Made by a program: the position numbers. A stretch of DNA of 64,000 nucleotides, from assembly GCF_024700885.2 (NCBI RefSeq), contig NZ_CP117016.1; one strand, 5' to 3'. Shown here one piece after another: positions 17,401-23,400 of the stretch; within the stretch, counting starts at the first letter, position 1, and the number at the start of each line of letters is the position of its first letter. This DNA is from Escherichia coli. Lineage in GTDB: Bacteria > Pseudomonadota > Gammaproteobacteria > Enterobacterales > Enterobacteriaceae.

Positions 17401-20400
17401 CCGCCGGGGATACACAAAACACATGCTGCGTCTGCGGCGGGCCGGAGAGATAAACGGAGAACATGTCCCTGAAATTATTCTGCTCAACTCTCATGACGGT
17501 ACCTCCAGCTACCAGATGCTGCCGGGGTACTTCAGGTTCGTCTGCCAGAACGGCTGCGTCTGTGGTCAGTCTCTGGGGGAAGTACGTGTTCCGCACCGGG
17601 GAAATGTGGTGGACAGAGTCATTGAAGGGGCTTACGAGGTGGTGGGCGTGTTTGACCGGATAGAGGAGAAGCGTGATGCCATGCAGTCGCTGGTCCTGCC
17701 GCCACCGGCACGCCAGGCGCTGGCACAGGCGGCACTGACTTACCGTTATGGTGACGAACATCAGCCCGTCACCACCGCCGACATTCTGACGCCGCGACGC
17801 CGGGAGGATTACGGTAAGGACCTGTGGAGCGCATATCAGACCATCCAGGAGAATATGCTGAAAGGCGGGATTTCCGGTCGCAGTGCAAAAGGAAAACGTA
17901 TCCATACCCGGGCCATTCACAGCATTGATACCGACATTAAGCTCAATCGCGCATTGTGGGTGATGGCAGAAACGATGCTGGAGAGCCTGCGCTGATGCCG
18001 TTTCCCTGAGTGAGGGAATCATTCAGCTTTCGTTCCTGAAAAACACACATTTATTTGTTATTTAAGGAGTTATCTCATGAAAACCGTTTCTCAGAATACC
18101 CCCACAATTTATTCAGCTACAACACCAGAGAATAATCCGCCTCAGTTGGTTGCCAGCCTCGTCCCTGATGAACAGCGCATCAGCTTCTGGCCGCAGCATT
18201 TTGGCCTCATTCCACAGTGGGTGACCCTGGAGCCCCGTGTCTTCGGCTGGATGGACCGTCTGTGCGAAGACTACTGCGGTGGTATCTGGAATCTGTACAC
18301 CCTGAACAACGGCGGGGCATTTATGGCACCCGAACCGGATGACGATGATGACGAAACATGGGTACTGTTCAATGCCATGAACGGTAACCGCGCAGAAATG
18401 AGCCCGGAAGCCGCCGGTATTGCCGCCTGTCTGATGACGTACAGTCATCATGCCTGTCGTACGGAGAATTATGCCATGACGGTCCATTATTACCGGTTGC
18501 GGGATTACGCCCTGCAGCATCCGGAATGCAGCGCCATTATGCGCATCATCGACTGAATGGAGAGAAGCACAATGCAACAACTTTCCTTTCTGCCCGGAGA
18601 GATGACGCCCGGCGAGCGCAGCCTCATTCAACGGGCCCTGAAAACCCTGGACCGCCATCTTCATGAACCCGGCGTGGCCTTCACCTCCACCCGTGCGGCA
18701 CGGGAATGGCTGATTCTGAACATGGCGGGACTGGAGCGTGAAGAGTTCCGGGTGCTGTATCTGAATAACCAGAATCAGCTGATTGCCGGTGAAACCCTCT
18801 TCACCGGCACCATCAACCGCACGGAAGTCCATCCCCGGGAAGTGATTAAACGCGCCCTGTACCACAATGCCGCTGCCGTGGTACTGGCACACAATCACCC
18901 GTCCGGTGAAGTCACACCCAGTAAGGCAGACCGGCTTATCACCGAACGTCTGGTACAGGCACTGGGCCTGGTGGATATCCGGGTGCCGGACCATCTGATA
19001 GTCGGTGGCAACCAGGTTTTCTCCTTTGCCGAACATGGTCTGCTTTAACCCTTCACAACCACATCACACCTGTTTTCACTTTTATCTTCTGTCTTCAGAG
19101 GTATCCCATTATGAAAATTATCACCCGTGGTGAAGCCATGCGTATTCACCAACAACATCCGACATCCCGTCTTTTTCCGTTCTGTACCGGTAAATACCGC
19201 TGGCACGGCAGTGCTGAAGCGTATACCGGTCGTGAAGTGCAGGATATTCCCGGTGTGCTGGCCGTGTTTGCTGAACGCCGTAAGGACAGTTTTGGTCCGT
19301 ATGTCCGGCTGATGAGCGTCACCCTGAACTGAGTGGGAATTCTGATGAGCAGAATTATCGCCACTACCGGACCATTCTTAGCCGATTTTCTGTAAGGATT
19401 TTATCGTGTCAGACACACTCCCCGGGACAACACTTCCCGACGACAATCACGACCGCCCCTGGTGGGGGCTGCCCTGCACCGTGACGCCCTGTTTCGGGGC
19501 ACGTCTGGTGCAGGAGGGTAACCGGTTGCATTACCTTGCCGACCGCGCCGGTATCAGAGGCCTGTTCAGCGATGCAGATGCGTACCACCTGGACCAGGCC
19601 TTTCCGCTGCTGATGAAACAACTGGAACTCATGCTCACCAGCGGTGAACTGAATCCCCGCCATCAGCATACCGTCACGCTGTATGCAAAAGGGCTGACCT
19701 GCAAAGCCGATACCCTCAGCAGTTGTGGTTACGTTTATCTGGCTGTTTATCCGACGCCCGAAATGAAAAATTAACTCTCCAGAATAGCCTTCTGCTACGG
19801 CCTGGTGTTTTCACCACGCCACTTTTCCATTTTTATATCTGCATATCAGGAAAATCTTCAGTATGAAAACATTACCTGTATTACCCGGGCAGGCGGCCAG
19901 TTCTCGCCCGTCTCCTGTTGAAATCTGGCAGATACTGCTGTCCCGACTGCTGGACCAGCACTATGGCCTCACACTGAATGACACACCTTTTGCCGATGAA
20001 CGTGTGATTGAGCAGCATATTGAGGCAGGCATTTCACTGTGTGATGCGGTGAACTGATGCGCCGCGCGATAAATGCACTCTATCTTGTGCGATAAATGGC
20101 ATCCACGCGGCGTTTCATTATTTGAAAAAGAATTACATTTCAGGTTGCGTTATGACAGTCCCAACAGGGTGATAGCGGTAGATCGTTGACAGTCCAATAT
20201 CATAGATAATTGCCAGCCGCTTTCTGTCATACCCTTTCTGGAGCAATCTTGCGATCTGCTCATGCTGCTCCTTCGTCAGTTTCGGGCGACGTCCTCCAAC
20301 TCTTCCTTGTGCTCGCGCAGCAGCCAGTCCAGCCAGCGTGCGCTCAACTATCAGTTCACGCTCCATTTCTGCCAGTGCACCCATCATATGAAAAAAGAAC

Positions 20401-23400
20401 CTTCCCATCGGAGTGCTGGTATCGATTGAATCCGTCAGACTGCGAAAATTGACACCTTTTGCGCGTAGCTCTTCTGTGAGAGCAATGAGGTGTTTCATTC
20501 TTCTACCCAACCGATCCAGCTTCCAGACCACCAATGTATCCCCTCTTTTAAGGCACTTTAAAGCGCGTTTCAGGCCTGGTCGTTCCGACTTGGTTCCGCT
20601 CATTTTGTCCTCAAAAATCTGTTCACATCCTGCGCACATTAATGCATTGCGTTGCAAATCTGTGTTTTGGTCATTTGTTGACACACGTATGTAGCCAATC
20701 AGCATTAAAAATACTCCCTTTTGAGTGGTTAAAGTACTGAGATAATGTGGGGAGGATTTGAGAGATAAACGTTGGTTTGGGGGAAGGCTCGGCGCTGCCC
20801 GTTGGTGTACCTGTTCCGTGGCCCACTGCCACACCGCCAGCAGGCTGGTTAAAGTGCGACGGGCGCGCCTTTACAAAAGAACAATATCCTGTTCTGGCCA
20901 GAGTCTACCCGACCCTCCGTCTTCCCGATTTGCGCGGTGAGTTTATCCGTGGATGGGACGACGGGCGAAAAGTGGATACAGGGCGCGATCTGCTTTCACG
21001 GCAGGATGGTACAAGTTTTTCTCATTACGCAGGTAATTTTGACATTGGGTCTGGTCATTCAATCAATAACTATGACCAAATCCTTGACAACCAACCTGGA
21101 TTCTCCCGTTTTTCATTTGCAGGTCCTTCGCGAGGCGATGGGGTTAATTATGTGACCATTCGTCCCCGTAACATTGCGTTTAATTACATCGTAAGGGCGG
21201 CATAGAAACGTTGGTTTGGGGGAAGGCTCTGCATTGCCTGTTGGTGTACCGGTTCCATGGCCCACCGCCACACCGCCAGCAGGCTGGTTACAGTGCAACG
21301 GAGCTACGTTCACCAAAGAACAATATCCTGTTCTGGCCAGAGTCTACCCGACCCTCCGTCTTCCCGATTTGCGCGGTGAGTTTATCCGTGGATGGGACGG
21401 TGGTCGCAAGGTTGATACCGGGCGTGCGCTACTTTCATTTCAGGAAGGGACTATCGTATCCGGTTTTGATGATAATGATACCGGAGATATCAGTTCGCTC
21501 GGCTCTACACAATACGGATTTGGTGACGCTTTAACCTCTAATCAACTGGGGGTCTTAAATGGCAAAAAGTGGATATTTGATGCATCCTCTAAAGGTGCAC
21601 AAAGATATGACTGGTGGGCTTATGTATCAGCTCGCCCCCGCAATATCGCATTTAACTATATCGTGAGGGCGGCGTGATACCGTTCAGCCGGCAAGCGCCA
21701 GTGGCGCTTCCGGCCAGCTGATTTCAGGTGCCTTGCTGATATCCAGTGCGTTCAGCTCGTCGATATAATCCAGCACGGCGTTCAGTTTTGCCGTTTCTTC
21801 TGGTTTCAGACTGCGACCAGCACGCAGTTTGAGGTTGATAAGATCGACGGACGCCATCGCCTGTTTCACCCGTTGCTGGCGTTGCTGTCTGGCAACCTCC
21901 AGTTCTGCGGCTCGCTGCCGTTCAGTATCGGTTACCCACGCCTCACCGTTCCAGGTATCCCATGGCGTGGCTGGCTGTTTTGTGGTGGTGTCCGCCGGGT
22001 AATCACCCGGTTGGGTAATCAGAACGGGGTTACCGTTCTCCGTGCTGTATACCGTCTCGCCGCGGTGATCAGGCACATGCTCCCACCCGTTCAGCGTGGC
22101 AGTCCGGCAAACCACGTAACCCGAAATTGCTTCCGGCGGTGCATCGGCGCACGAATGTGCCGGAGTACCCACCCCAAGGGCGAGATACTCCACAGAGGAT
22201 GAGGTGTATTCCCGGGTTTCCTCGTCATAGTGATATACAGTGATATCGCCCGCTACAGTGGCGATACCGTTTTCATCCAGAACTGCAGTGTTACTCATTA
22301 AACTGCCCTCACAATGTAATTAAGTGCAATGCTACGGGGTCTGACAGTGATACCCTTCGCATACCCGCTTCTGATAGAGGTCAGAATAGTAGCCTGCATA
22401 CCATTGTCTGACATTGCCACGACAGGATCGCTGAATGTTGTCCCGTCCGGCATTTTAAAGCTGCCCTCACGAAGGTCTGTAATGGAATCTTCATTGTTGA
22501 ATCCCATGCCGACTATCCCCGAGGTTCCCGTAGTGTCCTGGTTATAATAATCCAGCATTGCTGTTCTTAACAGCGTTGCCCCTTGTGCGGACAGCAACTT
22601 ACGTCCTGTATCAACTTTGCGCCCGTCGTCCCATCCACGGATAAACTCACCGCGTAAATCGGGAAGACGGAGGGTCGGGTAGACTCTGGCCAGAACAGGA
22701 TATTGTTCTTTTGTAAAGGCGCGCCCGTCGCACTTTAACCAGCCTGCTGGCGGTGTGGCGGTGGGCCACGGAACAGGCACACCAACGGGTAGCGCCGAGC
22801 CTTCTCCTAAACCAAGGTAATTGAGGACATCTTTTATACTGCCCTTAGCGATAATAGCGCGACCAATAGCTGTAAGGGTTGCCAGCTCTGCGCGGTCTGC
22901 TCCGGTAAAATAAGGCAACCGATCTGCTGCAGTGGCAAGTCCTGCCAGAGCAGTGAGCGTGGCATCTGCCGGTTGTTTTCCGTTTGCCAGATCGTATGCA
23001 GCCTTGACCGCTTTCGGTGTGGCGGCCAGTATTTCAGACGTGCTGTTGATGGCACTGCTCAATTGTACGGTGCCTTTTGCCGTCAGCGAGGCAGCAGGCA
23101 CTCCCGTTATCTGACTCCACGGGTGAGTGTGGCTGACGGGCGCCTTGCCGGCTGCAAGGTCGTATGCAGCCTTGACCGCCTTCGGCGTGGCAGCCTCAGT
23201 TTCTGATTGACTGTCCGTGGCGCTGCTCAGTTGTACGGTGCCTTTTGCCGTCAGCGAGGCAGCAGGCACTCCCGTTATCTGACTCCACGGGTGAGTGTGG
23301 CTGACGGGCGCCTTGCCGGCTGCAAGGTCGTATGCAGCCTTGACGGCCTTTGGTGTGGCGGCCAGCGTTTCAGAGGTGCTGTTGGTGTCACTGCTCAATT

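Follow-up and report, generated by a model that had tools for sequence, protein, structure and literature searches.

The window, by which we mean the whole 64,000-nucleotide stretch of Escherichia coli DNA analysed here (contig NZ_CP117016.1), contains at the right end of an integrated prophage a compact group of genes centred on a phage tail fibre. In the order of the open reading frame (ORF) list, these are a DNA invertase gene (pin), two silent tip cassettes (c1 and c2), a tail-fibre assembly gene (tfa), and the fibre gene, whose product is divided into a constant part (Sc) and a variable C-terminal tip (SvA). Three crossover sites, A, B, and C, accompany them, and the features of the locus are as follows.

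20133..20705, minus strand: pin/gin-like serine DNA invertase of 190 amino acids (beginning MLIGYIRVSTNDQ), co-directional with the fibre operon.
20760..20785, plus strand: site A, proximal to pin, core TT at 20772-20773, identical to 'Phi2_3prime' of prophage Phi2 in E. coli EC958.
20774..21205, plus strand: silent tip cassette c1, with an ORF at 20777..21205 (142 amino acids), from the ORF list and an in-frame fusion test.
21199..21224, plus strand: site B, the middle site, core TT at 21211-21212, overlapping the c1 stop codon.
21213..21677, plus strand: silent tip cassette c2, with an ORF at 21216..21677 (153 amino acids), lying tail-to-tail with tfa.
21684..22298, minus strand: tfa, the single tail-fibre assembly (chaperone) gene, matching Caudo_TAP and PHROG 105.
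22298..23971, minus strand: the fibre gene, 557 amino acids, from the ORF list.
22298..22813, minus strand: the variable tip SvA, expressed now, the C-terminal 172 amino acids of the fibre.
22802..22827, minus strand: site C, within the fibre gene, core at 22814-22815, identical to EC958 'Phi2_5prime'.
22816..23971, minus strand: the constant part Sc of the fibre, with five Phage_fiber_2 repeats from 168-bp tandem repeats.

The original prediction, made from the sequence, had described two tandem ORFs on the strand opposite the fibre gene that share a start block and a like tail with the fibre tip and differ in the middle, together with one tfa only, placed between the expressed tip and the silent cassettes. 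This arrangement holds in full: the ORF list returns all of the genes, the single tfa included, at the coordinates that had been given, and protein comparison finds that about 75 N-terminal residues are identical or near-identical across SvA, c1, and c2 before the middles diverge. The C-terminal ends are again alike, reading RPRNIAFNYIVRAA in c1 and c2 and RPRSIALNYIVRAV in SvA. At the nucleotide level, a repeat finder recovers the common block as inverted repeats between the fibre gene and the start of c1 (20769-20997 and 22590-22818; 229 nt, 93% complementary) and between the fibre gene and the start of c2 (21208-21436 and 22590-22818; 229 nt, 86% complementary), and as a direct repeat between the two cassette starts (20767-21012 and 21206-21451; 87% identity). 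There is no room for a second tfa, since c1 abuts site B and c2 ends only 6 bp from the tfa stop codon.

A structural reason for this conserved-variable-conserved pattern comes from the fibre tips of phage T4. A Collar domain (PF07484) occupies residues 397-444 of the fibre, just past site C (Pfam, 1e-14), and SvA resembles the T4 gp37 tip 2xgf (phmmer, 3e-14), with both the collar block and the C-terminal NIAFNYIVR aligned. In T4 gp37, the chain runs outward along the needle and then back to the collar, and both ends together make the collar. A chain that returns to its collar explains why a conserved start and a conserved end surround a variable middle. With its Collar start and IAFNYIVR end, SvA thus appears to be a collar/needle tip of the gp37 type, and the variable middle of each tip is probably the receptor-contacting part.

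The invertase shares 77% identity with Mu Gin over 181 amino acids. Both the catalytic Ser9, in YIRVSTNDQ, and the DRLGR motif are intact, so the assignment to the Gin family stands, and the catalytic motif, whose disruption had been named, together with a lack of inversion in deep sequencing reads, as what would refute the switch, is undamaged. The Gin chains 4m6f and 3uj3 in the PDB match at E values of about 1e-93 to 2e-93, PHROG 125 'DNA invertase' matches at 1e-94, and the Hin DNA-binding domain 1hcr aligns with residues 139-184. The protein therefore has the N-terminal Ser9 domain and C-terminal helix-turn-helix of the small serine recombinases of the Gin/Hin/Cin/Pin (Din) systems. NCBIfam returned only sub-threshold matches for the invertase, and none for the tips or tfa. 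A longer, GTG-initiated ORF that begins at 20834 was rejected as the invertase gene, the true start being the ATG at 20705.

Sites A (GAGAGATAAACG-TT-GGTTTGGGGGAA), B (GGCATAGAAACG-TT-GGTTTGGGGGAA), and C (TCCTCAATTACC-TT-GGTTTAGGAGAA, read on the minus strand) are 26 bp long and have a 12-2-12 architecture around a common TT core, with A and B in direct orientation and C inverted. They align with the gix site of Mu and fit the published consensus (PMC4134206). A degenerate pattern of core and right half matches exactly three times in the 64-kb window, where 0.07 matches are expected and none of 100 shuffles reaches three; all three of the gix/hix-like cores that had been proposed, the last of them inverted, are thereby recovered as the only matches. 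The same degenerate-pattern search of the window found no fourth or quasi crossover site that would free tfa to invert alone.

When Sc is joined in silico to c1 or to c2 at the TT core, each product is a fibre ORF that stays in frame without a break. Because A and B are direct and C is inverted, inversion in silico can reach four isomers, which carry three alternative tips, and each has a natural counterpart (slashes mark crossover junctions, arrowheads orientation).

Isomer 1, the window's own arrangement: Sc/SvA tfa <c2/<c1/pin, seen in EC958 and p11B.
Isomer 2: Sc/c2> <tfa <SvA/<c1/pin, seen in LS4.
Isomer 3: Sc/c1>/c2> <tfa <SvA/pin, seen in p11A, 4/4, O25b:H4, and JJ2434.
Isomer 4: Sc/c1>/SvA> tfa> <c2/pin, seen in AR_451.

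Artificial sequences of the recombinant junctions served as queries against 5426 complete E. coli genomes. The Sc-c1, Sc-c2, pin-SvA, and pin-c2 junctions are each matched as a single piece at 99.7-100% identity, Sc-c1 in 157 genomes and Sc-c2 at 100% identity in LS4 and many further genomes. The hybrid sites in p11A, LS4, 4/4, and AR_451 consist of exactly the predicted left half, TT, and right half, which confines the exchange to the 7-bp interval TTGGTTT. Between p11A and p11B, blood isolates from one patient, the 2040-bp A-C segment is exactly reverse-complemented and the flanks are identical. Inversion with exchange at the core, as in Gin/Hin systems, is thus visible in the hybrid sites, in the p11A/p11B pair, and in the published EC958 reads, while three sites and all four isomers in genomes place the locus among multiple-inversion systems, with more than two functional sites and more than two isomers. 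The expectation that inversion would swap the tip among three variants is well supported by the in-frame fusions and by the occurrence of all four isomers in natural genomes.

These recombinant loci also bear on what drives the exchange. On a rival account the invertase is incidental, and the rearrangements come from homologous recombination by RecA acting on the 229-bp inverted repeats; repeats of 229 nt at 86-93% identity are long enough for it. In every recombinant locus, however, the exchange falls inside TTGGTTT, on the left margin of the repeat, and the whole diverged block stays with its own cassette, while core-joined queries match recombinants at 100% across blocks that are 7-14% different. 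That the diverged blocks are never mosaic disfavours homologous recombination, as do sites of the Gin-family 12-2-12 form with identical cores and the intact invertase that adjoins them, and we regard this explanation as very improbable.

Less probable still is a two-site switch in which recombination is confined to the outer sites A and C, site B and c2 being present as a passive duplication. Forde et al. give Phi2 two crossover sites and one segment of 2067 bp (PMC4134206), which would agree with such a scheme, but it is refuted by the B-left/C-right hybrids of LS4 and AR_451 and by the Sc-c2 and pin-c2 junctions, which arise only from recombination of B with C. Many genomes carry the Sc-c2 junction at 100% identity, and the homologue in enteropathogenic E. 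coli (EPEC) shows both inversions by polymerase chain reaction (PCR) (PMC4272514). The hybrid sites in LS4 and AR_451 thus show that the middle site B recombines with C and is used in nature. We give equally little credence to the idea that the silent cassettes are decaying fragments of a switch frozen in this copy, for although PGAP calls the cassettes, and sometimes the fibre gene, 'incomplete; partial' pseudogenes at matching loci, each cassette is an open frame of full length that can be joined to Sc in frame, the two are seen fused in hundreds of genomes, and the window's invertase gene and three sites are identical to those of switched copies, with none disabled.

The isomers were further sampled with a chimeric unique-piece probe read by coverage class, over 60 evenly spaced rows of the 841 matching records. 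States 1, 2, 3, and 4 stand at 10 : 9 : 4 : 4 rows in this sample; two rows (KE54 and ABU 83972) hold a two-site variant without c1, its span shorter by exactly 439 bp, and six rows carry other cassette alleles. The variant loci of ABU 83972, SCU-101, and DSM 101139 are two-site forms or have other silent-cassette alleles of 474-504 bp, with one tfa each. Esc2, Esc16, and Esc27, which belong to one series with sizes of 5,156,475-5,156,529 bp, fall into the classes of state 4 and state 2, which hints at within-clone switching. Junction counts at a coverage of at least 80% (Sc-SvA 282, Sc-c2 166, pin-SvA 227, pin-c2 181) are mutually inconsistent and were not used as a census. Our guess is that a search that joins overlapping same-strand pieces would mix two isomers in some of these counts, with neither joining assumption reconciling the numbers; by the same reasoning, the Sc-c1 count should be clean.

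Taken together, the results make us highly confident that we are dealing with a multiple DNA inversion switch of the Gin/Pin type, located at the right end of a transposable, BcepMu-like prophage that is the same phage as Phi2. If it works as the Gin/Hin family does, invertase dimers would bind the three 26-bp sites, a Fis-bound enhancer in the 5' part of the invertase gene would assist synapsis of A or B with the inverted C in an invertasome, and cutting at the central TT would leave 2-nt overhangs, to be followed by subunit rotation and religation. In the natural recombinant loci, left half-sites stay put and right half-sites move with the cassettes, so that each event joins Sc in frame to another promoterless C-terminal tip. 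A topological bias that favours inversion over deletion, as in the Gin/Hin family, may operate here as well, from which it would follow that c1 is normally kept even though A and B are direct; the c1-less variants imply that loss of c1, or a reciprocal gain, has occurred at least once. The result would probably be a population in which virions of three adsorption specificities are mixed.

Some points weigh against this interpretation and temper its reach. Activity of this strain's own copy is presumed from the 100% identity of its invertase and sites to those of active copies. In isomers 2 and 3 the sole tfa is antisense to the fibre operon, and virions made in those states may or may not carry functional fibres. 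The placement of the Fis enhancer, finally, is suggested by position.

20621..20683, no strand assigned: candidate Fis-dependent recombinational enhancer at the 5' end of the invertase gene.

This interval holds two Fis-like 15-mers with centres at nt 30 and 78 of the invertase gene, 48 bp apart, found by a crude scan in which they are undistinguished from background. Mu gin has them at the same positions, and the 5' coding DNA of the invertase aligns closely with Mu gin, a conservation that is confounded by protein-coding constraint.

The place of tfa in the switch raises the only lead here with some novelty, the relation of the tips to their chaperone. The gene matches Pfam Caudo_TAP (PF02413) at 8e-27 and PHROG 105 'tail fiber assembly' at 3e-87, with zero matches in a PDB sequence search. 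Enumeration of the isomers leaves tfa fixed next to SvA and c2 always convergent with tfa, never co-oriented, and in the two-site variants the one silent cassette is likewise never co-oriented with it. It is conceivable, though we lean somewhat against it, that c1 and c2 are 'orphan' tips, the sole chaperone gene being locked beside SvA in what would be, if their virions are infectious, a departure from the S-U / U'-S' rule. Should isomer 2 and 3 virions be infectious, then their tips fold without Tfa in cis, or Tfa is supplied in trans from another prophage, or tfa has a promoter of its own, and any of these would break with the S-U / U'-S' rule that Mu, P1, and the P2-like phages follow; should they be non-infectious, about half of the phage's isomers would lead nowhere.

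The start of tfa overlaps the SvA stop codon (TAATG). The conserved last codons of the three tips (..IVRAA or IVRAV; GTGAGGGC or GTAAGGGC) form Shine-Dalgarno-like AGGG/GAGG motifs at 21662-21677, 21190-21205, and 22298-22313, about 8-10 nt ahead of the stop codon. In SvA the motif falls a short way before the overlapping tfa start, a position that suggests that tfa is translationally coupled to SvA. A consensus scan found no sigma-70-like promoters in 20000-24100, with Mor/C-type late promoters outside its reach. This agrees, within such a scan, with the earlier description of the cassettes as promoterless, and it leaves tfa expression in isomers 2 and 3 without an explanation.

The prophage that hosts the switch is a 37.1-kb BcepMu-like transposable element (window 20055-57174), and 20051-57175 is collinear with EC958 Phi2 at about 99% identity. 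Its right end lies close behind the invertase.

20055..20132, no strand assigned: prophage right end (beginning TGATGCGCC), 78 bp past the invertase stop codon.

The element splits a cbtA/ykfI-like toxin gene of a CP4-57-type island, with the N-terminal part at 19863..20054 and the remainder from 57175, and a GTGAAC duplication flanks it. The invertase had been predicted to sit at the prophage end, and the element does stop at about 20055 within the split cbtA-like gene. EC958 Phi2 encodes a DDE transposase, a MuB-like ATPase, Gam, Mor, and a Mu/P2-type tail, with its early operon divergent from the late genes. Further prophage copies lie at aroA/ycaL, rstB, hutI, and dgcM, a variety of insertion places that is expected of a transposable phage, and transposition genes, varied insertion, and target duplication are thus all found, as in Mu-like transposable phages. 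The related phage PhiKM is classed as Bcepmuvirus. Which isomer is packaged is not readable from phage records, as the partial PhiKM genome is broken at the switch and 503046 is unannotated.

The 168-bp tandem repeats of the fibre shaft, at window 22977-23780, encode the Phage_fiber_2 units, and their copy number varies among prophage copies, from three units in EC958 (443 amino acids) to five in the window (557 amino acids), with fibres of 611-667 amino acids in other copies. Upstream of the prophage, the island segment at window 16310-19774 is CP4-57/CP4-44-like, as labelled by reading translations; the genes labelled in this way include a DUF932-like gene (17177..17995), a RadC/YeeS-like gene (18557..19048), and a YeeU/CbeA-like antitoxin gene (19406..19774).

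Tail-fibre inversion switches are a means of host-range bet-hedging by temperate phages, and they supply swappable receptor-binding modules for engineered phages and tailocins. They also call for caution in annotation, as PGAP marks silent cassettes, and at times the fibre gene, as partial pseudogenes. This label ('partial in the middle of a contig') shifts with the isomer and is an artefact of the switch.

Our analysis confirms what the original prediction observed and supports its interpretation, for a system that is already known: the same phage was reported to switch in EC958 (PMC4134206), and EPEC has a homologous module with three sites, which was described in PMC4272514. The present copy adds no new principle. 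What is added is the natural use of the middle site, the finding that all four isomers are common across sequence type 131 (ST131) and other E. coli genomes, and the observation that two tips out of three have no chaperone in cis, from which a testable question of Tfa dependence arises.

The closest relative is Phi2 of the ST131 strain EC958, which is the same phage, its invertase gene (100% at the DNA level) and all three sites being identical to those of the window. An alternative PacBio contig showed inversion in EC958 Phi2 between sites TCCTCAATTACCTTGGTTTAGGAGAA and GAGAGATAAACGTTGGTTTGGGGGAA, which are the window's C and A (PMC4134206). Forde et al. 2014 (PLoS One) tabulated only two sites, bounding an invertible segment of 2067 bp, and described the layout generically as a mirror image that includes a cognate second minor fibre gene (PMC4134206), a gene that Phi2 lacks. 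The two copies differ in their insertion, which is in the cbtA-like toxin gene in the window and between ycaL and aroA in EC958, and in the two extra 168-bp fibre repeats of the window.

Goldberg et al. 2014 (Genome Med) described a 'shufflon-like' locus with three inverted repeats, carried by EPEC E2348/69 in a P2-like prophage, and confirmed by PCR four coexisting variants with three alternative C-termini (PMC4272514). The module is homologous to that of the window, with three TT-core sites, the same 439-bp spacing of the direct sites, three tips, and a single tfa. Identity to the window's counterparts is 84% for the invertase and only 59% for tfa. The expressed tip is 85% identical to c1, the variable middles of the remaining two tips are different, and the backbone is P2-like and non-transposable.

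The Mu G/Gin and P1 C/Cin systems share with the window a Gin-family invertase that ends the fibre operon, 26-bp sites within the gene, and in-frame exchange of C-termini. They have two sites, two states, and a chaperone per tip (S-U / U'-S'), whereas the window has three sites, four states, three tips, and one chaperone; the mirror-image arrangement in which each tip has its own co-inverted chaperone is therefore absent, the tfa being single. The core is TT/AA in the window's sites and GA in Mu gix, and BLASTP finds zero similarity between the window's tfa product and Mu U. The P2-like phages 500465-1 and 500465-2 (Peduoviridae) have tips homologous to c1 and c2, the identity to c1 reaching 61%, next to a DNA invertase, but their layout is the mirror form fibre-tfa / tfa'-Sv'-invertase, with a tfa for each tip.

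Systems with more sites differ in degree or in kind. The Min system of plasmid p15B, studied by Sandmeier, Iida, and Arber, reportedly has six crossover sites and many isomers. Min, which is cited in PMC4134206, likewise depends on a serine invertase and, having more than two crossover sites, shuffles C-terminal segments of a tail fibre; compared by description, the window's system is alike in kind, with three sites and four isomers. R64-type shufflons (Rci, pilV) work in a similar way, exchanging the C-terminus of an adhesin by multiple inversions, but they use a tyrosine recombinase and 19-bp sfx repeats and target a pilus gene. The window's module, with a serine invertase as its recombinase and a phage tail fibre as its target, therefore falls outside them.

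The same module is also found on the 96-kb plasmid pB2C_96 (NZ_CP035876.1), where positions 3734-8685 match at 99% identity and include c1, c2, tfa, and the three sites, with an invertase (WP_000904922.1) identical to the window's. On this plasmid, which encodes phage tail and lysis genes, the module is attached to a far longer fibre gene of 928 amino acids, with a holin gene and others of phage type beside it. The presence of the module on pB2C_96 and, in diverged form, in a P2-like prophage suggests that it is a mobile switch common to different phage backbones.

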